A DNA stretch of 64,000 bases, taken from assembly GCA_021163365.1 (NCBI GenBank), contig JAGGWW010000006.1, forward strand, positions 4,123-68,122. The letters are read 5' to 3'. The first letter of the stretch is position 1. Every line of letters starts with the position of its first letter. Made by a program: the position numbers and the translations under genes. Shown here piece after piece: positions 3,414 through 60,146 of the stretch. Under the pieces are notes generated by a model that saw nothing but the letters and a program-made list of their open reading frames with translations, made no database searches and was not told the DNA's origin. The stretch is from Nanobdellota archaeon (lineage in GTDB: Archaea; Nanobdellota; Nanobdellia; CSSed11-243R1).

Positions 3414-3943
3414 TCAAATACCCTCAAAAACCCGTTTAAGGTTATTCCATTTATTATATTATCAGCTAATTTTTTATTAGGTATTTGCTTGATGTTTTTA
3501 AATCTAAATATTTGTATTTTTCTCTGTAATATCTTTTCAAATTTCTTAGTATTTAACTTCTTCTTCGACAAAGTTTCAATGTAAATATCAATATCACTAT
3601 CTTCAACATCCTCGCCTTTGGAATATGAACCAAATAAAACAACAGTTGGATTACTTAACTCTTCGCGTAGATACTTTATCAAACCTGAAATATAAATTTG
3701 TTTTAAATTAAAAATTCTCTTTTCAAGTAAAAATATTTCATTGCTTCTATCAGCAGTATAAAATTTAACATTTCCAATTATAAGTGTTTTCAGAATTCCT
3801 TCTTTACTTAACTCTTTACAATATCGAATAACAGACGGCAAAGATAACCCTAAAACTCTTTCAAGCTGTCTAACCCTCATTTTTGCTGTTGGGTTCATGA
3901 AAAAGAATTCCTTTATCTTTCGTTTGATATCCATCGGTATCAT
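3410..3943 (-). CDS. minimal nucleotidyltransferase (MNT) with N-terminal wHTH, antitoxin component
   Basis: NTase motif LFGSYSKGEDVEDSDIDI (GS..D.D) and an N-terminal HTH-like segment LGLSLPSVIRYCKELSKEGIL. Confidence 0.6.
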   Translation of the reverse strand: MIPMDIKRKIKEFFFMNPTAKMRVRQLERVLGLSLPSVIRYCKELSKEGILKTLIIGNVKFYTADRSNEIFLLEKRIFNLKQIYISGLIKYLREELSNPTVVLFGSYSKGEDVEDSDIDIYIETLSKKKLNTKKFEKILQRKIQIFRFKNIKQIPNKKLADNIINGITLNGFLRVFE

Positions 3944-3976
3944 ATGATATTTTAAAATATCAACTGATATTTAAGG

Positions 3977-4564
3977 TTATCGATTCGTCTTAAACACCTT
4001 CCCATGTCCTGGAATTACAAAATCAGCTATCTCCAAGATTTTTTTGCGGGAAGCAATTAGTTTTTCCATATTTGTGTGTTCGGGGTCATTGTCTGGTTTA
4101 TTAATATCTACTTCTTGTTTCTGGTCCTCAGTCCACCAAAAAACATCTCCTGCTACAACATAAGTTCCTTCTGGTGTAGGAATCACAAATGAGCAGTGTT
4201 CTTCTTTATGTCCGGGTGTACGAATTACCCTTACATCAGTTCCTGGAACAACCCCATTGTGCTGTGAAATTAAATCCTTGTCATACACATAAAGTTCATC
4301 GATTATCTTGGCGTTTTTAAATATACCAGCGAGAACTGTATGGTCTGGATGTCCATGTGTCAAAAGCACGTAATCTATATCATCCACACTCAACCCTTCT
4401 TTTTTTAATGATTCTATTAATTTCTCTCTGTTACAACCTGGATCAGCAATCATCTTTTTGCCATTGCTAATAATTAAAGTAACGGATGAATTGGCTTTCC
4501 ACCCATTATCAGTTTCCTTAGCATATCCTTCAATAAGAATTTTAACTTTGTTCATCTTTTTCAC
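3977..4564 (-). CDS. metallo-beta-lactamase fold hydrolase
   Basis: HGHPDH motif (H.H.DH) and downstream His/Asp ligands. 195 aa. Confidence 0.65.
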   Translation of the reverse strand: MKKMNKVKILIEGYAKETDNGWKANSSVTLIISNGKKMIADPGCNREKLIESLKKEGLSVDDIDYVLLTHGHPDHTVLAGIFKNAKIIDELYVYDKDLISQHNGVVPGTDVRVIRTPGHKEEHCSFVIPTPEGTYVVAGDVFWWTEDQKQEVDINKPDNDPEHTNMEKLIASRKKILEIADFVIPGHGKVFKTNR

Positions 4565-9870: not shown

Positions 9871-12800
9871 ATGAAGCCAATTGATATAAAAGATAAAATA
9901 CCAAAAGAGCTATTTGAAAAATTAACTATTGATAAGTTTACTCCACCACAGGAGCTTGCAATAAAAAAGGGTTTGTTAGATGGTAAAAATCTTGTTGTTG
10001 CAAGCCCAACAGCATCTGGTAAAACACTAATTGCTGAAATAGCATGTGTTAAAAACATTCTTGAAAAAGGTGGGAAAGCAATTTATTTAACACCTTTAAA
10101 ATCTCTTGCTTCTGAGAAATATAATGAGTTCAAAGAAAAGTATCCTTTTCTAAACATAATGCTTTCAATTGGAGACTATGACTCAAGTGACCCATGGCTT
10201 CAAAAAGCAGACATTATTGTTTGCTCAAATGAAAAGCTTGATTCTTTGATAAGACACAATGTACCATGGCTACATGAGATTAACACTATTGTAATAGATG
10301 AAATTCATGTTTTAGACCAACCAGACAGAGGACCCACTCTTGAAATATTAATAACAAGACTAAAAGAATTTTGTAAAAATGCACAAATAATTGCGCTCTC
10401 TGCAACAATTCAAAATGCAAAAGAGTTAGCAGAATGGTTAAATGCAAATCTTGTGAAAAGCAATTATCGTCCAGTTGAACTTGAATATGGAGTTTATCTT
10501 GATGGCAAACTTTACTTTGAAGATAAAACTATTGATTTGCCAGAAGCAAAAATACCAGAGCATCAAATAATAAAAGATACTTTAAACATGAAAAAACAAA
10601 TACTGATTTTTCTTTCAAGCAGAAGAAATGCGGAAGCTGTTGCAAAAAATGCAAAAACAGTTGTTGAAAGATATTTGACAAAAGAAGAAAAAGAAAAACT
10701 TCAAAAAATAAGTGATGAGATATTACATGTTTTAGAATCTCCAACAAAACAATGTGAAGTTTTAAGTGAATGTGTAAAACATGGTGTTGCTTTTCATCAT
10801 GCAGGGCTTGTTGGAAAACAGCAAAGGATGATTGAAGAAGCATTTAAACAAGGACTAATTAAATTAATAGCTGCAACTCCAACTCTTTGTCTTGACGCTT
10901 CTGTTGAGATTTGGAATGGGATGAAAAATGTTAAAGTATCAGAAATGAAGCATAACTCTGTTTGGGCATTAAGCAAAGATAAGCTTCTGCAAATTCATCC
11001 AAAACAAGTTAATATTCTTGAAGCTCCAAAAGAAATGGTGGAATTAATTACTACATCTGGAGATAGAATAACACTAACAAAGAACCATAAAATATTAATA
11101 AAAAGGGGCAAAAAGAAGCTTTTAATACCTGCTAGTGAAGTAGAAGCTGGAGATAAAGTGGCACTTGCAGGAAATCTCAGAATGGAAGGGATGTCAGTTA
11201 AATGGGGTGACTTTCTAAGAGATAAAAAAGTTCCATTTGATGACTTGGAACCAAACGAAGATGTGTTCTATTTCATCGGAGCTATGCTTGGAGATGGGTA
11301 TTCTGGCGCAGAATTAAATAATGATAAGTTAATCTTAAAGGGTAGCCCTTGTATTGTGGGTGAAGATAAAGAAGTATTTGATAGGATAAAGAAACTCTTG
11401 AATAAGTATAAAATACACTATAGAGAAAGGCATAGTTCATATGGTGTTCCCGAATTGATTATTTCTAAATCGAATTGGTTGCGTGAGTTTTTGGCGAGAT
11501 GTGGGGTTGTGAAGGGGGAAGAAAAATTCATAAATGAAAAACTTTTAATGGCGAAAAAAGAATTTCTTGCACATTTAATTCAGGGATTATTTGATACAGA
11601 TGGATGTGTAGAAAAGAAAACGTTAAGAATAAGCTTTTCAAGTAACTCATTTAAATTAATTCACTCTTTGAAAAGAGCTCTTTTAAGATATGGGATTGTC
11701 ACATCTTATAGGAAAAGAAAGTGTGGGGAAATAAAAATCGGAGCTCGTAAATATGAAACAAAAGAAAATTTCGAACTGTACATTCAACATAGAGAAAGCA
11801 TACTTAAGTTTTATCAACAGATAGGATTTGGCATAAAAAGAAAACAAAAGGAATTAGAAAAAATAGTAAAAAGAATTAAGAACAATATTGTAAGCGTTAG
11901 TTGTAAAAAATGTGGGTATACTTTACCAACTGAGATATTTACTGGAAGGAATTCAAGTCAAAAGAAGTGGGGAAAACAAAGGCTAAAAATAATAACTCTT
12001 TTGGGAAAAGAAAAAGAATTGCCTTCTTCTGAAATTAGAAGGAAACTTGGTTTCGTACCTTGGAAAAAGGAACGAAGATTAAATACACATTTCATACTAA
12101 TTGAAAGAAAAAGAAAGGGGAAGCATGTAATATGGAAACTAAATAGCTTAGGAAAATGGGTGTATAAAAATGTAATTAAAGGTAATAAGAGCATTAAAGA
12201 CGCCATTGGGGATAGATGCCCAATATGTAATGCAAAGCTTAAGAAAAACCTAAAAGGAACTTGGAAAAAAGAAGATTTTGAAGGTGATATATACTGGTGC
12301 AAATTAAAAGAAATACATAAGGTTGCTCCAACCACAGATAAAGTTTATGACATAGTTCTCTCAAATGGTAACCATGACCACCTTTTTGTTGCGAATGGTT
12401 TTATTGTCCATAATTCTTTTGGTGTCAATCTTCCAAGCCACACAGTTCTTGTAAGGGATTTAAAAAGATATTCTCCAGAATATGGTAGCAATTGGATTCC
12501 TGTTTTGGAAGTTCAACAGTTTTTTGGAAGAGCTGGGCGTCCAAAGTTTGACAAAGAAGGAAGAGCTTTAATGATTGCTCGCTCAGAAATAGAAAAAGAT
12601 GAAATTTTTGAAAAGTATGTTAAGGGCGAGCCAGAAGAAATCTATTCAAAGCTTTCAGCTGAGCCAATTCTTAGAATGCAAGTTCTTGGATTAATTGCAA
12701 CTGGAGAGATTTCAAACAAGAAAAATTTGCTAAATTTTTTCTCAAAAACATTTTTTGCATATCAATATTCAGACATAAAAAGAATTGAGGTAAAGCTTGA

Positions 12801-13799: not shown

Positions 13800-13981
13800 G
13801 GGGCCGTGGTCTAGCAAACCCTTTCTTCCGAAGAAAGCCTTGGGAAAGAAGGGTTTGGGCAACTTGGTCTAGGATGCGTGCCTGGGGCGCACGTGGTCCC
13901 GAGTGACCCTTTTCTTAAGAAGAAAAGCGTCAACGGAAAAGAACTTAAATTGGTCCGGGAATTCAAATCTCGGCGGCCCCA
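13800..13981 (+). tRNA. tRNA-Pro(GGG) with two non-canonical introns (D-loop and T-loop)
   Basis: Acceptor GGGGCCG/CGGCCCC plus A73. Anticodon stem-loop CGTGC-CTGGGGC-GCACG (GGG at 13884..13886). T-arm CCGAG...TTCAAAT-CTCGG split by ~58 nt (13904..13961). D-loop split by ~50 nt (~13816..13865). Exact splice boundaries unresolved. Confidence 0.5.
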
Positions 13982-14021
13982 CTTAAAAAACTTTAAATCA
14001 ATCAATTGCTTTTAATTTTAC

Positions 14022-17848: not shown

Positions 17849-17883
17849 AGATTATAAATATCTTTTCTATTTCTTTTTTTGTT

Positions 17884-17981
17884 CCCCGCGTAGCTCAATG
17901 GTAGAGCGCTCGGCTGTAGTTGGTTTAACTGGAATTTCAGTTGAAACCGAGAGGTTGCTGGTTCGAATCCGGCCGCGGGGA
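17884..17981 (+). tRNA. tRNA-Tyr(GUA) with canonical-position intron
   Basis: Acceptor CCCCGCG/CGCGGGG with C1:G72 (archaeal Tyr identity). Anticodon stem CTCGG/CCGAG, loop CTGTAG then ~26-nt intron, T-arm GCTGG-TTCGAAT-CCGGC. Confidence 0.6.
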
Positions 17982-17982
17982 T

Positions 17983-18159
17983 GCCCCGATAGTCTAGGCG
18001 CCCTTTCCGCCTTCTTTAGAAAAGAAGGCAGGTTGCCAAGAAAGGGTGGGGAAATGGCCTAGGATCCCGGTCTGTCGAGCGACCTTTTCAGAGAAAAGCT
18101 CGAAAAAGAAGAGGTCGTGTAGCAAGCCGGGGACCCGGGTTCGAATCCCGGTCGGGGCG
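17983..18159 (+). tRNA. tRNA-Asp(GUC) with D-loop intron (carrying a nested insertion) and anticodon-loop intron
   Basis: Acceptor GCCCCGA/TCGGGGC. Anticodon loop CTGTCGA between CCGGT/GCCGG. T-arm CCGGG-TTCGAAT-CCCGG. D-loop interrupted by CGCCCTTTCCGC...GAAAGGGTGGGGAAA. Starts 1 nt after tRNA-Tyr. Confidence 0.6.
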
Positions 18160-18191: not shown

Positions 18192-18701
18192 ATGAAAATA
18201 ATACCAACTGAATTCCGTAATGAAACTAACATATTTACAATTTCTGAGAGCGAGTTATTAGAATTAATTAAATATGCTTTAAAAAATCAAAATGAAATAG
18301 GTGGAAAATTTGAAAATGGAAAATTACAAATAAAAACCTTTGACAGCTGGGTGCCAAAGGAATACAGAATTCATTCTCACCCAAATGGTATTGCATTCCC
18401 ATCTGAAGGAGATATAGACTTGATGATTAATTACATGGGTGGAGGAGTATATCACACAATTGTTGGAGTTAGAAGCGATTTAAAAAGAGCAGTTATCCGC
18501 TCTTATAATATGAAGTTTCAATTAGAAAGAGTTTTAATAAAAACAGAAAAAGGCGCGTATAGTGAAATAAGATATAAAGATGGTGAGCTATCATATTTAT
18601 TTGAAAAAAGAGAAAATGTTCAAATGTGTATAAAAAACATGTGCGATTTTTTACACTTGCAAATGCCTGAGAGCTTCAATAATATGATAATTAATCTTTA
18701 G
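18192..18701 (+). CDS. JAB/MPN+ (JAMM) metalloprotease domain protein
   Basis: HSHPNGIAFPSEGD matches the JAMM motif H.H.(7)S.(2)D, with an upstream Glu (EIGG). Confidence 0.6.
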   Translation: MKIIPTEFRNETNIFTISESELLELIKYALKNQNEIGGKFENGKLQIKTFDSWVPKEYRIHSHPNGIAFPSEGDIDLMINYMGGGVYHTIVGVRSDLKRAVIRSYNMKFQLERVLIKTEKGAYSEIRYKDGELSYLFEKRENVQMCIKNMCDFLHLQMPESFNNMIINL

Positions 18702-18800: not shown

Positions 18801-18901
18801 GGGCCCGTAGCTCAGCCTGGCAGAGCACCTGTTCAGCTTATGATCTTGCTGAGGTGAAGCTTTTAACCAGGGGGTCAGGGGTTCAAATCCCCTCGGGCCC
18901 A
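18801..18901 (+). tRNA. tRNA-Lys(UUU) with putative non-canonical intron in the anticodon stem
   Basis: Acceptor GGGCCCG/CGGGCCC; D-arm GCTC-AGCCTGGCA-GAGC. Removing ~27 nt (TTCAGCTTATGATCTTGCTGAGGTGAA) yields stem CCTGG/CCAGG around loop CTTTTAA. Confidence 0.55.
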
Positions 18902-37731: not shown

Positions 37732-37908
37732 GCCCGCGTAGCTCAAAACCCTTTCCGCTGACGCGCAAAGCGTTTACGGAAAAGGTTGGCGAAGTGGTAG
37801 AGCGGCAGCCTGTTAAGCTGTAGGTCGCAGGTTCGAACGCACCCTTTCTTAAAAGAAAGCGTGCACGGAAAGAAAATCCGTGGGTGCTCGGAAGTCCTGC
37901 CGCGGGCG
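37732..37908 (+). tRNA. tRNA-Asn(GUU) with D-loop and T-loop introns
   Basis: Acceptor GCCCGCG/CGCGGGC; anticodon stem-loop GCAGC-CTGTTAA-GCTGT. D-loop carries AACCCTTTCCGCTGACGCGCAAAGCGTTTACGGAAAAGGTTGGCGAAG. T-arm GCAGG-TTCGAAC..[~55 nt]..CCTGC. Confidence 0.6.
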
Positions 37909-40017: not shown

Positions 40018-40173
40018 GCTCCGGTAGTCTAGGCGCCCTTTCCGCTTAGAAAGGGTGGGGAAATCCGGCCAAGGATACCGGCCTTTCGAAATCAGAACCC
40101 CGGTGGGTTCCGATACCTCCTGCGACGTGGTTGGAGAAAGCCGGTGACCCGGGTTCAAATCCCGGCCGGAGCA
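40018..40173 (+). tRNA. tRNA-Glu(UUC) with D-loop intron and anticodon-loop intron
   Basis: Acceptor GCTCCGG/CCGGAGC plus A. Mature D-loop AGTCCGGCCAA after removing ~31 nt (GCGCCCTTTCCGCTTAGAAAGGGTGGGGAAA). Anticodon stem ACCGGC/GCCGGT with loop CTTTCGA, then ~50-nt intron. T-arm CCGGG-TTCAAAT-CCCGG. Confidence 0.6.
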
Positions 40174-40196: not shown

Positions 40197-40313
40197 ATGA
40201 AAAGAAGCTCACGAGTTTGGAAAAAAAGAAGACAATGTAGATGGAGAACAAGAAAAAAAAGAATTAGAGAAAGAAAGAGAAAGAGAAGGCAAGAAAGAGC
40301 AAGAGCTAAGTAA
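40197..40313 (+). CDS. rpl41e: ribosomal protein eL41 (L41e), very short basic peptide
   Basis: 38-aa ORF MKRSSRVWKKRRQCRWRTRKKRIRERKRKRRQERARAK is almost entirely Arg/Lys, like eL41. Below the 60-aa threshold of the ORF track. Confidence 0.5.
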   Translation: MKRSSRVWKKRRQCRWRTRKKRIRERKRKRRQERARAK

Positions 40314-40365
40314 TCTAATTCTTACAAAATGTTTAAATATGGTTTTAATTTAGATAAATGTGAAT

Positions 40366-40513
40366 GCGGGGGTGTCCGAGCCTGGCCAAAGGAGCAGGAC
40401 TTAAGTGCCAGTGCTAAGGAATCCTGTGCCTTAGTGGCTGCGAGGGTTCAAACCAGCCTTTCTTAGAAAGAAAGCCTGGGGAAAGAAAGGTTGTGAGATT
40501 CCCTCCCCCCGCA
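40366..40513 (+). tRNA. tRNA-Leu(UAA) with anticodon-loop intron and T-loop intron
   Basis: Acceptor GCGGGGG/CCCCCGC plus A; D-loop AGCCTGGCCAAA. Anticodon stem CAGGA/TCCTG with loop CTTAAG, ~15-nt intron, then A. Variable arm GCC-TTAGT-GGC. T-arm GAGGG-TTCAAAC..[~50 nt with CCTTTCTTAGAAAGAAAGCCTGGGGAAAGAAAGG]..CCCTC. Confidence 0.55.
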
Positions 40514-41462: not shown

Positions 41463-42335
41463 TCACTTGCCCTCTGCCGGTGCATTGCGTGCTGGCAAAA
41501 AAGAGGGAATGAGTAAACAGGATTTCCTGTTTATGATGTAGGAAGGCAACAAGTGAAAATAGGTTGTGCTCGAAAGCGACCGTTAACTCCAGTTGATCCT
41601 GCTGGAGATCACTGCTTTCGGAGTCCGGCTAAACCATGCAAGTCAGCTGGCAGGGTGCTGCTGGCGGCGAACGGCTTAGTAACACGTAGACAACCTGCCC
41701 TTAGGTGGGGGATAACTCCGGGAAACTGGAGCTAATACCCCATAGGTGTTGGATACTGGAAGGTTCCAACACTGAAAGGGCTTAGGCTTTCCCCTAAGTT
41801 CCGCCTAAGGATGGGTCTGCGGCTGATCAGGCTGTTGGTGAGGTAACGGCTCACCAAACCTAAGACCAGTAGGGGCCGTGAGAGCGGGGGCCCCAAGAAG
41901 GGCACTGAGACAAGGGCCCTAGCCCTACGGGGTGCAGCAGGTGCGAAACTTCTGCAATGCCCGCAAGGGTGACAGAGGGACTCCGAGTGCTCATGCATTG
42001 CATGGGCTTTTGCCAAGTGTAAAAAGCTTGGCGAATAAGGGGTGGGCAAGACCGGTGGCAGCAGCCGCGGTAATACCGGCGCCCCAAGTGGTGATCGCGA
42101 TTATTGGGCCTAAAGCGTCCGTAGCCGGTTTGGTAAGTCTCTGGTGAAATCCATGCGCTTAACGTATGGGCGAGCCAGAGATACTGCCAAGCTAGGGACC
42201 GGGAGAAGCCAGGGGTATTCCTGGGGTAGGAGTAAAATCCTGTAATCCCAGGAGGACCACCGGTGGCGAAGGCGCCTGGCTAGAACGGGTCCGACGGTGA
42301 GGGACGAAAGCTGGGGGAGCAAACCGGATTAGATA

Positions 42336-42381
42336 GACCCTTTCCGCTGACGCGCAAAGCGTCTACGGAAAGTCCTAAATA
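42336..42381 (+). other. 16S insertion 1 (putative intron) splitting universal GGATTAGATACCC
   Basis: GACCCTTTCCGCTGACGCGCAAAGCGTCTACGGAAAGTCCTAAAT lies between GGATTAGATA and CCCGGGTAGTCC. It is near-identical to the tRNA-Asn and tRNA-Ile D-loop insertions. Boundaries +/- 2 nt. Confidence 0.6.
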
Positions 42382-42468
42382 CCCGGGTAGTCCCAGCTGT
42401 AAACGCTGCCTGTTAGGTGTTGCACATCGTTCGACGGTGTGCAGTGCCGAAGCGAAGGCATTAAACAG

Positions 42469-42499
<31 letters not shown>

Positions 42500-42677
42500 T
42501 TCCGGTTGGTTTGCCTCGGGTGCAAGCTGACCGTGACAGCTTACTTAAAGGAATAGGCGGGGGAGCACAACAAGGGGTGAAGCCTGCGGTTCAATTGGAT
42601 TCGACGCCAGGAATCTCACCAGGGCTGACAGCATGATGAAGGTCAGCCTGAAGGGCTTACCTGAAGCGCTGAGAGGT

Positions 42678-42787
<110 letters not shown>

Positions 42788-43193
42788 TCGCCACTAGTTG
42801 CTATTTCCTATCTTCGGATGGGAAAGCACACTAGTGGGACTGCCTGCGTAAGCAGGAGGAAGGTGAGGGCGACGTCAGGTCAGTATGCCCCGAATGCCCT
42901 GGGCTACACGCGGGCTGCAATGCCTCAGACAATGAGATGCAACGCCGAAAGGCGAAGCAAATCTCCTAAACTGAGGCTCAGTTCGGATCGAGGGTTGGGA
43001 CTCACCCTCGTGAAGACGGAATCCCTAGTAACCGCGTTTCAGCATGGCGCGGTGAATACGTCCCTGCTCCTTGCACTCACCGCCCGTCATACCATTCGAG
43101 TTGGGTGGGGATGAGGCTTCCCCTTTTGTTAGATCTTCGGATCTGGCAAAAGAGGAAGTCGAATCCTTGCTCAGCGAGAGGGGTAAAGTCGTC

Positions 43194-43236
<43 letters not shown>

Positions 43237-46670: not shown

Positions 46671-46784
46671 GGGCCCGTAGCGTAACGGTAACGCGCCCGC
46701 CTTGCAAGAGCCGGTGGCGGAAGTATCGGAACCGCTGTCGGTTCTGATCGCGGGAGACTTCGGGTTCGAATCCCGACGGGTCCA
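46671..46784 (+). tRNA. tRNA-Ala(UGC) with canonical-position intron (~42 nt)
   Basis: Acceptor GGGCCCG/CGGGTCC with G3:U70 (Ala identity) and discriminator A. Anticodon stem CCCGC/GCGGG with loop CTTGCA plus intron. T-arm TCGGG-TTCGAAT-CCCGA. Confidence 0.75.
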
Positions 46785-47042: not shown

Positions 47043-49045
47043 AATTTCTCTTAAACAAAGGCTGATGATTTATGATAATAAAATAGTGCCTTGAGCACCA
47101 ATGGTTTTTTCTTGTGAGTCAGCCTTTTATGTGTGCTTCCTGATCATACGATCTGGAAGCAAAAGGCATCCTCTTAACATGTTCAGCATGTTAATGATGC
47201 CGTGCATAGGGGAGCACCAGAATAGGCACTACGCTGCCAGGTGGATGGCTCGGCTCAGAAGCTGATGAAGGGCGTGGCAAGCTGCGATAAGCCTGGGGTA
47301 GCCGCACGCAGGCTAAGATCCCAGGATTCCCGAATGAGACTTCTTGGCATGCAGTAATGCATGTCACTCGGGTTGGTGATGAGCTAACCCGAGGAGGAAC
47401 TCCGCGAATTGAAACATCTTAGTAGCGGAAGGAAAAGAAATCAATTGAGATGCCGTTAGTAGGGGCGACCGAAAGCGGCATAGGGCAAACTGAACCATAT
47501 ATCGCAAGATATATGGGATGTGGTGTTTGGGAGCTGCGTATGCCAACTTCAAGGTGAAGCTGAACTCTGCTGGAAAGCAGGGCCATAGAGGGTGATAGCC
47601 CCGTAAGCGTAAGCCAAGAAGTTGGCGCAGTTTCCAGAGTACGCGGGGTTGAGATTCTCCGCGGAAATTGGGGGGCAATAACCTCCAACCCTAAATACTC
47701 TCTGAGACCGATAGCGAATTAGTACCGTGAGGGAACGCTGAAAAGTATCCAGAAATGGAGGTGAAAAGAACCTGAAACCTGGCAGCTACGGTATGCTGCG
47801 GCTCAAAAGGCTACTTCCTGAGCGAAGCTGTCGAAAGGCAGTTTTAGCAAAGGAAGTAGTTCCAGGGTTGCAGCGTTCCTTTCGGATAAAGAGGCAGGGA
47901 GTTTGTCTCAGTGGCGAGGCTAAGCTCAATTAAGAGCGGAGCCAAAGCGAAAGCAAAATGCGCGCAATCAGGGTTCTGATGAGGCGCTGCGTACGAAAGT
48001 GCGCGTAGTCACTGGGACAAGACCCGAAACCGCACGATCTACGCCTGGCTAGGACGAAATGAGGGGTTTCTCCCTCATGGAGGTCCGTAGGGGTGCTGCC
48101 TTTCAAAGCGCTCCCATGAGCTGGGTGTAGGGGTAAAAGGCCAATCATGTGCGGTGATAGCTGGTTCCTCCCGAAATGAGTCTCAGCTCAGCCCTACCAG
48201 AGCTTGCTAAGGGGGTAGAGCACTGATTGCGTATGCAGGGGTCGAGAGGCCTCGGTACGCAGTCAAACTCCGAATACCTTAGCAGCTAAGAAGGTAGGAG
48301 TGGGGGCACTGGGGTAAGCTCGGTGTCCAAGAGCGGAACAACGCAGACTGGAGTTAAGGTCCCAAAATGCTGGCTAAGTGATTTCGAACTTTGTCACCAG
48401 CCACAGACAGCCGGGAGGTAGGCTTAGAAGTAGCCATCCTTTAAAAAGTGTGTAACAGCTTACCGGTCGAGGCTGTTGGCGGGGAAAATGGACGGGTCTT
48501 AAGCCAGCTACCGATACTCCAGACCAGGATCCTTTGGATCCTGTGTGGTAGGGAGGCGTGTCGCATGGGCAGAAGCTGGTTCGTAAGGACCAGTGGACCG
48601 TGCGATAATGAGAATCCTGCCGGTAGTAGTAGCCTAGATGGGTGAGAATCCCATCCGCCTTAAGAGCCAGGGTTCCTCGGCAATGCTTCGTCAACCGAGG
48701 GTTAGTCGGTCCTAACCCATGTGGTAATTCCAACATGGGGAAAGGGAAGCAGGTTAATATTCCTGCACCACCTGGATACGTTCGGCAACGAAGGCTTGCC
48801 CAGTGACGCTTGGGGATAGGCAGAGCAGCACCGTCGTGCTGTTTAACAGGGATAAGTCCGGGGAGTTCTGTAATGGAGAGATCCGGACTAAACCTGGAAT
48901 AGCTGGCGTTTGCCAGTTCTGCTGATTCCTCGAGCCCGTGAAAAGCTGGGCAAGAAGGAGTCCAGGTGTCCGTACCGAGAACCGGGACAGGTGTCTCGGG
49001 CTTAGAAGGCTAAGGCGTGTAGGGATAAGTCAGTCAAGGGAAATC

Positions 49046-49078
<33 letters not shown>

Positions 49079-49825
49079 TGCCTGCGACAGTGATTCGATG
49101 AGAATTGTTGTCGCAGGTCGCAGTGACTAGGGGGGCTGGACTGTTTAACAAAAACATAGCTGGTTGCTAATCCGAAAGGATTTGTACAACCGGCGACGCC
49201 TGCCCAGTGCCGGTATCTGAAACCCTGGTTCAACAGGGCTAAGGACCGGTAAACGGCGGAGGTAACTGTAACCTTCTTAAGCAAGCGCAATGCCTTGCCA
49301 TTTAAATGATGGCTTTGCGAACGGCGTAACTAGGTCCCCACTGTCCCTGACTGACACCCTATGAACACACTATTCTGGTGCAAAGGCCAGAGACTCCCAT
49401 TGGGACGATAAGACCCCAGGAGCTTTACTACAGCCAGTACTTGCGTTTCAGGTTTTGGTGTATAGCGTAGGCAGGAGACGTCGAAGCACCCACGCTAGTG
49501 GGTGTGGAGTCGCCAATGTAACACTGCCCACCTGGATCTGGAGCGCTAACTTCAGGGAAAACCTGAAGGACAGGTATTGGTGGGTAGTTTGGCTGGGGTG
49601 GCACGCCCGCGATAAGGTATCACGGGTGCCCTAAGGTCGGCTCATCCGGGTCAGAAATCCGGAGAAGAGCGTAAGGGCAAAAGCCGGCCTGACTGTGTGT
49701 CAGACAGAAAGACACGCAGGGGCGAAAGCCGGGCCTAACGAACCACAGTGCCCTTTTATTGAGGGCCTGTGATGACCGAAAAGCTACCCTGGGGGTAACA
49801 GAGTTGTCGCGGACGAGAGCTCATA

Positions 49826-49912
49826 CAACCTTTCTTTTGAGAAAAGAAACGTTGACGAAAGAAAATTCTCTTTGGTCAAGCTTTCTCTTTTCAAGAGAAA
49901 GGTTGGCGCATA
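49826..49912 (+). other. 23S insertion 1 (putative intron, ~87 nt) at the conserved GAGCTCAYATCGAC site
   Basis: AACCTTTCTTTTGAGAAAAGAAACG...GCTTTCTCTTTTCAAGAGAAAGGTTGGCGCAT carries two copies of the CTTTC..GAAAG hairpin. It lies between GAGCTCATA and TCGACTCCGCGG. This is the same region where archaeal 23S introns are known. Confidence 0.55.
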
Positions 49913-49968
49913 TCGACTCCGCGGCTTGCTACATCGACGTCGGCTCCTCCCATCCTGGCTGTGCAGCA

Positions 49969-50013
49969 AACCTTTTCTTAGAAAGAAAAGCTTTACCAAA
50001 AGAAAAGGTCTGA
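49969..50013 (+). other. 23S insertion 2 (putative intron or expansion) within the H93-equivalent hairpin
   Basis: ACCTTTTCTTAGAAAGAAAAGCTTTACCAAAAGAAAAGGTCTG lies between CCTGGCTGTGCAGCAA and AGGCAGCCAAGGG. ACCTTTTCTT is exactly complementary to AAGAAAAGGT. Confidence 0.4.
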
Positions 50014-50404
50014 AGGCAGCCAAGGGTACGGGTGTTCACCGGTTAAAGGGGGTCGTGAGCTGGGTTCAGTACGCTGCGAGGCAGTACGGTTTTTATCTAG
50101 TGGGAGTGTCGGCCGACTGAGTGGAAGGTCCCCTTAGTACGAGAGGAACAGGGGATCGGCGCCTCTAGTCAACCGGTTGTCCGACAGGGCAGACGCCGGG
50201 TAGCCACGCGCTAGCAGATAAGTCCTGAACGCATCTAAGGACGAAGCTGCTCGCGAAAAAAGTCGGCCATGGCGCGGGAGTAGAAGACTCCGTTGATAGA
50301 GTCGGGGTGTAATCCCGTAAGGGGCAGCCCACGACTACTAATAGCGCCAAGCCTATTCTAAATCCCCTATGCACGGTGTCATATTTTCATCTTTAGAAAG
50401 AATG

Positions 50405-59366: not shown

Positions 59367-60146
59367 ATGAAAAAAATAATCTTTGGCATGCTAATTGCAT
59401 TGTTTTTTGCGGTGTCTATTGCAAGTGCGCAAAACCAAACAGTAAATCAAACTGCTACACAACTTATGAAAATAGCAGGATATACACCGGATAGCCCAAT
59501 TTATGGATTAGAAAGAATGTGGGAAAGAATAAGACTCATGCTAACATTTAATGAAGAGGCAAAATTAAAGCTTAAAATGGAATTTGCAGAAGAAAGATTA
59601 GCAGAAGCAGAAGCAATGGCTCAAAAAGGAAAACCAGAAATTGCAGAAAAGTTAGTTAATGAATATAAAAACCAATTTAATAAGACAGTAAATGAAGTTA
59701 AAAACAAATATGAGTTTTGCATTGCAAAACAAGAAGAAGTGTGTAAAAATCTTCCTTTTGAAGAAAGATGTGCTAATCTAACAGAAGAAGAGTGTTTAAA
59801 TTCAACAGAAACAATTTGTAAAGCATTTGCAGAGGAAAAATGTGTAAAGTGGGAAAATATGCTTAACAATGCACTAAACAAAACACTAAAACACAGGTAT
59901 GTTTTGCAATGGGTTTTAGAAAAAGTACCAGAGCAAGCAAAAAAAGGAATTGAAAGAGCAATAAATAATTCATATAAGCATGAAGAGAGACTTAAACAAA
60001 AACTTGGGGAAGTTAATGAAACAATAAATAAAGTTAAAGAAGAGAAGCAGAAGCATTTTTATGAAAATCTAACAGAGATATTAAATGAATCAGGAATAAA
60101 ATCTGAAGTACATGTGCCTGAAAAAGTGCATGGAAAACCAATGTAA
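59367..60146 (+). CDS. secreted Cys-containing coiled-coil protein (hypothetical)
   Basis: Signal peptide MKKIIFGMLIALFFAVSIASAQN beginning at the internal ATG. The rest is Lys/Glu-rich helical with paired cysteines. Confidence 0.4.
   Translation: MKKIIFGMLIALFFAVSIASAQNQTVNQTATQLMKIAGYTPDSPIYGLERMWERIRLMLTFNEEAKLKLKMEFAEERLAEAEAMAQKGKPEIAEKLVNEYKNQFNKTVNEVKNKYEFCIAKQEEVCKNLPFEERCANLTEEECLNSTETICKAFAEEKCVKWENMLNNALNKTLKHRYVLQWVLEKVPEQAKKGIERAINNSYKHEERLKQKLGEVNETINKVKEEKQKHFYENLTEILNESGIKSEVHVPEKVHGKPM

Follow-up and report, generated by a model that had tools for sequence, protein, structure and literature searches.

A two-intron tRNA-Asp gene of a DPANN archaeon and the probable loss of a predicted hairpin tip from the related D-loop intron of tRNA-Glu

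Non-canonical bulge-helix-bulge introns in tRNA genes were reportedly described by Sugahara et al. in 2007 and 2008. The motif comprises a 4-bp helix between two 3-nt bulges and is cut after the second bulge base (PMC4090602), and the Thermoproteales have been characterised by 'large-scale intron transposition' (Fujishima et al. 2010, as summarised in PMC4090602). The 64-kb stretch of DNA analysed here (the window) holds introns that resemble those of the Thermoproteales in being of the protein-spliced kind, in occupying non-canonical positions, in occurring several to a tRNA gene and in having strict or relaxed motifs, and in both cases near-identical introns sit at different positions in different tRNA genes. 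Unlike the Thermoproteales, the host is not a crenarchaeon but a DPANN archaeon, with 32% GC across the window and GC-rich RNA genes, and its introns form a family with a conserved CCTTTCTT/AAGAAAGG hairpin core of its own, which is also present in the 16S and 23S rRNA genes. Thermoproteales 16S rRNA genes contain short bulge-helix-bulge introns, so far as PMC4496867 sets them out; the window likewise has short inserts in conserved parts of rRNA genes, with bulge-helix-bulge motifs at their junctions, and these differ from the introns of that account, as far as it goes, in being near-identical to tRNA introns within their own genome. PMC3239211 and PMC5829648 report, in the parts that concern us here, highly disrupted tRNA genes and broad-specificity endonucleases for ARMAN-2 and other DPANN lineages. 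With the genes treated in those parts the window and its relatives share DPANN hosts, intron positions 59/60 and 53/54, the presence of two introns in a single T-arm, motifs of the relaxed type and tRNA genes overlooked by standard predictors, whereas a sequence family that spans tRNA and rRNA genes finds no mention in them.

A first-pass annotation of the window had taken the D-loop intron of a tRNA-Asp gene to be the D-loop intron of tRNA-Glu with a second family member inserted into its loop, a twintron-like arrangement that was offered as direct evidence that the elements move. Twintrons are group II or group III introns nested within other introns in Euglena plastids, and they require sequential splicing. 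The tRNA-Asp intron is like them in that a hairpin-forming, intron-like sequence lies inside another intron, and unlike them in that the inner segment carries no separate splice signals and leaves the outer recognition motif undisturbed; the chemistry, too, would be that of a protein endonuclease rather than of a ribozyme. Sequential splicing is known for adjacent archaeal tRNA introns, which are neighbouring and not nested (PMC8450103). A true filled-site/empty-site pair would be a rare direct clue to the spread of archaeal protein-spliced introns, and the sequences do not support one here. The feature was correctly seen and its interpretation over-read: the tRNA-Asp D-loop intron is most likely a commonplace length variant of an already known kind of archaeal intron, within a lineage unusually rich in such introns. 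On balance we favour a functional tRNA-Asp gene with two introns and no nested one, the tip of the D-loop hairpin having been deleted from the tRNA-Glu copy.

The tRNA-Asp gene belongs to a DPANN ('Nanoarchaeota') archaeon. A protein annotated 'MAG: Nanoarchaeota archaeon' matches the RpoB'' of the window at 100% identity, and the nearest relatives stand at ~85% identity. Rfam recovered archaeal 16S and 23S rRNA, RNase P RNA and five tRNAs from the window, and ARAGORN called only tRNA-His and tRNA-Arg on the raw sequence. Neither program called tRNA-Asp, tRNA-Glu, tRNA-Leu or tRNA-Pro there, so that by our count at least four tRNA genes of the window escaped both; the introns of the window illustrate why standard tRNA finders overlook genes in such a lineage. 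A tmRNA match at 18059-18152 is simply the T-arm of tRNA-Asp.

The tRNA-Asp(GTC) gene spans 17983-18159 on the + strand, with exons at 17983-17997, 18055-18077 and 18125-18159 separated by two introns. When spliced in silico, it yields a canonical cloverleaf of 73-74 nt that ARAGORN calls tRNA-Asp(gtc). Synteny with the tRNA-Asp of relatives, identity across three assemblies (the window and two other metagenome assemblies of the same species) and the perfect spliced cloverleaf led us to reject a pseudogene, which had been raised beforehand as a possible objection. Immediately upstream, tRNA-Tyr(GTA) (17884-17981, +; Rfam tRNA, 61.5 bits) has a canonical-site intron at ~17920-17945 in the bulge-helix-bulge scan and is itself preceded by a TATA-like TTATAAAT at 17853-17860. 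Only a 1-nt gap separates the end of tRNA-Tyr from the start of tRNA-Asp, and because of this spacing the two are probably co-transcribed. The canonical 37/38 intron of tRNA-Asp (47 nt; 18078-18124, +) has a strict motif in the scan, with 4 central, 11 inner and 7 outer pairs, and its 5′ part resembles the D-loop introns of AUK188 tRNA-Asp and tRNA-Glu (35/39 in the alignment to the L002 D-loop intron). Further downstream, tRNA-Lys(TTT) (18801-18901, +) is interrupted at 30/31, a non-canonical position, by an intron of 27 nt (18832-18858) whose motif is strict (central helix CACC/GGTG, 5 inner and 4 outer pairs) and whose sequence bears no relation to the CTTTC/GAAAG family. Between tRNA-Asp and tRNA-Lys lies a 169-aa ORF (18192-18701, +) that is missing at that position in relatives; the majority of these have a serpin gene in its place, and the site is a local rearrangement beside the tRNA cluster.

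The D-loop introns of tRNA-Asp and tRNA-Glu are homologous members of one family. The former is 57 nt long (17998-18054, +), and the tRNA-Glu(TTC) gene (40018-40173, +) has a short form of 31 nt at 40033-40063 in addition to a canonical intron of 50 nt at 40089-40138; its in-silico spliced product of 75-76 nt is called tRNA-Glu(ttc) by ARAGORN. The identical ends that the first-pass annotation described are indeed present, as CGCCCTTTCCGC occurs exactly twice in the window (17999 and 40034) and GAAAGGGTGGGGAAA exactly twice (18040 and 40049), numbers of matches that none of the dinucleotide shuffles attained. A match to the tRNA-Asp 3′ arm at 11717 falls within coding sequence and was set aside as chance. 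Between the shared ends stand 29 nt in tRNA-Asp versus 3 nt in tRNA-Glu, and MAFFT aligned the two introns with a single 26-nt gap, located in the loop, and one substitution (CGCTT versus CGCCT). The description of tRNA-Asp as tRNA-Glu plus an extra hairpin is therefore right about the internal 26-nt block; it passes over the substitution and most likely places the boundary one base off, and the difference between the two introns amounts to more than a clean insertion.

In L017, a MAG labelled Micrarchaeota, the canonical tRNA-Glu intron (AAATCAGAA...TTCCGATACCT...GGAGAA) is conserved too, and it may be more than a spacer because both of its hairpins show apparently compensatory changes. An extremely basic ORF of ~38 aa (MKRSSRVWKKRRQCRWRTRKK...; 40198-40314, +) lies 3′ of tRNA-Glu and is conserved after this gene in L036 (~3934-4050), L037 (~2274-2390) and L039 (~2552-2665). 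A different small basic ORF follows tRNA-Asp in L001, L002, L008 and L030; such an ORF may encode a small ribosomal protein.

To the scan, these D-loop introns present a relaxed motif with 3/4 central pairs and three possible registers. The central helix of tRNA-Asp joins GTCT (17992-17995) to GGGA (18049-18052), with bulges AG|G and AA|T, and in both window genes it is weakened to three pairs by GGGA instead of GGAC or GGGC. We compared these with homologous D-loop introns gathered from syntenic loci of relatives and from one pattern scan each of genome and metagenome collections. The 15/16 register is common to 19 homologous introns, and in 15 of the 19 it gives 4/4 central pairs: the D-stem GTCT (nt 10-13) pairs perfectly with four intron bases that end two bases upstream of the 3′ splice site, and the 5′ bulge reads A14 G15 | N. 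In the anchored alignment 87.7% of cells were paired, versus 26-48% when the partner was slid by 1-3 columns, and changes on both sides were found in all five inner-stem pairs, a covariation score attained by none of the shuffles. The register and the covariation across homologues place the intron at 15/16. We prefer this position because it alone gives all four central pairs in the homologues together with the usual AG-U... D-loop, and the registers 16/17, on which the earlier boundaries rested, and 17/18 were rejected. The D-loop introns most likely start one base earlier than had been written, with boundaries established to within 1 nt.

Minimum-free-energy folds predict that the tRNA-Asp D-loop intron is a hairpin within a hairpin (9 bp + 9 bp). 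The 5′ arm of the outer stem, CGCCCTTTC (17999-18007, +), pairs with 18040-18048, where the 3′ arm, GAAAGGGTG, begins a segment that continues into the GGGA central strand and the AA of the 3′ bulge (18040-18054, +); both arms and this continuation are identical in tRNA-Glu. Within the outer loop, GCCTTCTTT-AGA-AAAGAAGGC (18009-18029, +) folds as a perfect 9-bp stem, a 100% complementary inverted repeat (I3) with a core of the pattern CCTTCTTT-NNN-AAAGAAGG. It is followed on its 3′ side by a linker, AGGTTGCCAA (18030-18039, +), that is similar to the AAGTTGCC(C)AAAGAAAG linkers in further introns of the family (L027, L030). In both the minimum-free-energy and the centroid fold of the full precursor, the 9-bp outer stem (CGCCCUUUC/GAAAGGGUG) stays intact with the inner hairpin stacked in its loop, which indicates that the outer motif is independent of any removal of the inner segment. 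A bulge-helix-bulge scan around that segment gave chance-level candidates only. The best of them (18010-18033) has 3/4 central pairs, an internal mismatch and one outer pair, with a chance expectation of ~15% at fixed register and many equally good spurious hits in the scan. Since no bulge-helix-bulge surrounds it, the inner segment does not qualify as an intron, and no sequential splicing is required or expected. The comparison with twintrons fails both here and at the outer stem, which keeps its structure while the inner hairpin is present.

Insertion into a Glu-like intron had been the proposed direction of change, and comparison with homologues makes the reverse likelier. The tRNA-Glu D-loop intron, at 31 nt, is the shortest among 21 homologous D-loop introns, the others measuring 34-57 nt and most of them 45-55 (the 20 D-loop introns of tRNA-Asp, tRNA-Glu and tRNA-Pro compared from DPANN relatives measure 34-55 nt). 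In nearly all other homologues the stem is long and carries additional sequence at its apex, an apical hairpin or duplicated arms. In the tRNA-Glu intron of L029, which is identical in L039, the inner hairpin comes directly after the outer CCTTTC arm with 18/19 bases matched, a match equalled by 11 of 5000 hairpin-preserving shuffles (p ~0.002) and by 4 of 3000 for the best of 11 centres. L029 is a distant relative, with a neighbouring glycosyltransferase of only 66% identity to that of the window, and about one third of the outer-arm positions differ between its tRNA-Glu and the window, whereas none differ between the window's own tRNA-Asp and tRNA-Glu flanks. Because so distant a tRNA-Glu has the two-tier form while the window flanks are unsubstituted, this form appears to be older than the Asp/Glu split in the window genome.

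The sequence left in the tRNA-Glu loop fits the same direction. It starts with CGC, and the GC of this triplet provides in tRNA-Asp the first two bases of the inner hairpin and its first two pairs (18009-18010 with 18028-18029), which would be expected of a remnant and fortuitous for an insertion. In AUK188, moreover, the D-loop introns of tRNA-Asp and tRNA-Glu agree with each other at 49/54 positions and are unlike their own orthologues. The two genes thus evidently exchange the D-loop region, probably via their near-identical D-arm exons, so that the identical ends in the window need no transposition. With longer homologues, the L029 hairpin in place and CGC kept in the short form, the tRNA-Glu intron looks like a deletion derivative, and the polarity is probably one of loss in tRNA-Glu. 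Either direction requires a 26-nt indel and one substitution, and the relatives against which the event could be timed stand no nearer than ~85% RpoB'' identity.

Some further observations sit less easily with a deletion, and because of these caveats we retain three other readings. The T-loop intron of L011 has GTGCTTCGCAC where two close copies show TTAGAAAG, a case of tips gained or swapped; the tRNA-Asn D-loop and SSU introns bear a GC hairpin within a similar CCCTTTCCGC frame; between window tRNA-Asp and L029 tRNA-Glu the inner hairpin matches at 18/19 positions and the outer frame at ~17/25; and in a third genome, Dive96 (L036), where the neighbouring glycosyltransferase has 74% identity to that of L039, the same 18-nt core recurs in the D-loop intron of a tRNA-Leu. 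The last two of these would fit a transferable module. One reading is the nested insertion of the first-pass annotation, in which the CTTTC/GAAAG introns would be an actively mobile family of this DPANN clade that enters the apical loops of structured-RNA genes (tRNA D-, anticodon- and T-loops, 16S and 23S rRNA), the loop of a resident copy included, and a second member would have inserted into the loop of a Glu-like intron, with tRNA-Asp as the filled and tRNA-Glu as the empty site. If true, a nested bulge-helix-bulge intron would be on record for the first time, along with a snapshot of how archaeal introns insert, and the reading would account for the identical ends, for an extra block that forms one stretch exactly in the loop and for an inner hairpin in the family's pyrimidine-run/purine-run style. 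The core does occur in the D-loop introns of three genomes (window Asp, L029/L039 Glu and L036 Leu), and the family is demonstrably present in many loops of tRNA and rRNA genes. We nevertheless consider it unlikely. The inner block lacks a bulge-helix-bulge motif, and as a candidate DNA transposon or MITE it shows in the Asp/Glu alignment no flanking direct repeats and no ends matching another element. Its similarity to the ten other family introns of the window is not significant, the best local score being equalled by 130 of 2000 dinucleotide shuffles (p = 0.065) and by 300 of 2000 hairpin-preserving shuffles (p = 0.15). A search for other copies found no second one of the inner block in the 64-kb window, where a core match at 59751 lies within coding sequence and was dismissed as chance. 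Across ~400 kb of related loci the core appeared only in the homologous L029/L039 Glu and L036 Leu D-loop introns and in one unrelated viral hairpin, and viral contigs scanned for the core hairpin and the family core gave this one terminator-like hairpin and nothing else. Two inner-stem bases, moreover, fall in the part common to tRNA-Glu, the composite is also found in a distant tRNA-Glu, and it is the short form that is the outlier. As neither the nested reading nor the insertion polarity is supported, the Asp/Glu pair is not direct evidence of movement.

The other two readings dispense with an inserted element. The centre of the tRNA-Asp intron might have been overwritten, without transposition, via ectopic gene conversion with a member that shares the CTTTC/GAAAG arms. 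Short repeated arms of this kind could seed recombination, and the same frame is seen with different centres (Asn D-loop/SSU versus Glu versus Asp; L011 versus Asn T-loop). The tRNA-Asp intron minus its first 10 nt also aligns full-length with the window tRNA-Leu T-loop intron (34/45), and its linker AGGTTGCCAAGAAAG is like the linkers of other members. These identities, however, are low-complexity and not significant, the homology arms measure just 5-9 nt, and the window holds no donor with the same centre; we regard such a mosaic as doubtful. Local growth in tRNA-Asp, whether the 5′ arm was duplicated in tandem (CGCCCTTTC | CGCCTTCTTT) or the template was switched at a quasi-palindrome, would convert an intron with one stem and two alternative 3′ arms into a hairpin of two tiers. 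CGCC does stand twice in the 5′ strand, 9 nt apart, and a doubled 5′ arm is also present in L029. In most relatives, in addition, two 3′ arms compete for a single 5′ arm, whose duplication would give the tRNA-Asp structure exactly. The two 5′ copies are only ~67% alike, though, and growth by itself leaves the short tRNA-Glu form unexplained, a deletion still being needed, and this is to our mind the least probable of the readings.

With loss of the hairpin tip in tRNA-Glu as the preferred reading, the course of events can be sketched. RNase P and 3′ processing would free the precursor, and both introns of tRNA-Asp would be removed by the archaeal tRNA splicing endonuclease (EndA), which from its family would be expected to cut both bulges of each motif before RtcB joins the exons. 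In the D-arm, GUCU of the D-stem and four intron bases form the central helix of the relaxed bulge-helix-bulge, with the long intron hairpin abutting this helix, and the D-loop intron would leave as a single 57-nt piece, both tiers together. As recognition by the enzyme extends only to the central helix, both bulges and the hairpin base, the tip should be free to vary; the tRNA-Asp hairpin has two tiers, of which tRNA-Glu retains the lower one only. The two copies are recent paralogues, most likely kept alike by gene conversion or copying, and the 26-nt difference would most likely be the deletion of a hairpin tip in tRNA-Glu and less likely local growth or a swapped centre in tRNA-Asp.

Mobility, for which the Asp/Glu pair had been the proposed proof, is better argued from the family as a whole, with near-identical introns in different hosts. 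At least 11 introns of the window follow one plan: a short GC-rich arm, a CCTTTCTT-loop-AAGAAAGG hairpin, a linker (such as ACGGAAAGAAA or ACCAAAAGAAA) and a second 3′ arm, after which the intron ends with four bases complementary to the upstream exon. The tRNA hosts are Pro (D-loop and 53/54), Asp (D-loop and 37/38), Glu (D-loop), Asn (D-loop and 59/60) and Leu (59/60), the tRNA-Leu T-loop intron (40453-40499) having a strict motif, and the rRNA hosts are 16S (42335-42380 and 42708-42752) and 23S (~49826-49910 and ~49968-50015). The tRNA-Asn D-loop intron (37747-37792) matches the 16S intron at 42335-42380 at 39/43 positions. Comparably close matches join introns of the window to those of relatives, namely the Asn T-loop intron to the L001 Asp 37/38 intron (50/53), the Pro 53/54 intron to the L011 Asp 53/54 intron (53/56) and the 23S intron at ~49826-49910 to the L001 Asp 53/54 intron (71/86). 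The family does move, as shown by such near-identical introns, which are found in more than one tRNA, at more than one position and in the 16S as well as the 23S rRNA gene, and its movement parallels the intron transposition described in the Thermoproteales. This DPANN clade has a dense and recognisable intron family common to tRNA and rRNA genes, and because presence and absence vary among close relatives, with two to four introns in each of the orthologous tRNA-Asp genes and one tRNA gene reaching four, it is well suited to the study of how introns are gained, lost and reshaped.

Several other genes of the window and its relatives carry introns of note. In tRNA-Pro(GGG) (13800-13982, +) a D-loop intron at 13815-13862 (48 nt, 4/4 central pairs) accompanies a T-arm intron of ~57 nt at 53/54. 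The 16S rRNA gene (41586-43234) has three short inserts in conserved regions, at 42335-42380, ~42506-42548 and 42708-42752; in the first and the third, both members of the tRNA intron family, the 4-bp central helix is perfect, and the second looks unrelated. Two family-type inserts interrupt the 23S rRNA gene (47217-50361), the first being a two-hairpin composite; the scan gave no clean splice motifs at these 23S inserts, whose boundaries are approximate. A distance of ~4 kb separates the 16S and 23S genes; the interval contains protein-coding sequence and a tRNA-Arg(TCT) gene with an intron (46671-46784), which spans 114 nt in Rfam versus 78 nt in ARAGORN. In L036 (Dive96_bin10.467), the core of the tRNA-Leu D-loop intron is a CCTTCTTT-AAAA-AGAAGG hairpin, and tRNA-Glu (3724-3881) has two D-arm introns, one at 15/16 and a second of ~34 nt directly before the 3′ D-stem strand, and lacks an anticodon-loop intron. 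Archaeal tRNA genes hold up to three introns according to the tRNAscan-SE 2.0 paper (PMC8450103). The tRNA-Asp of L011 (143-424; ENA REYS20 scaffold_3916) has four, at 15/16 (51 nt), 37/38 (52 nt), 53/54 (59 nt) and 59/60 (47 nt), and splicing it in silico yields a 73-nt tRNA-Asp.
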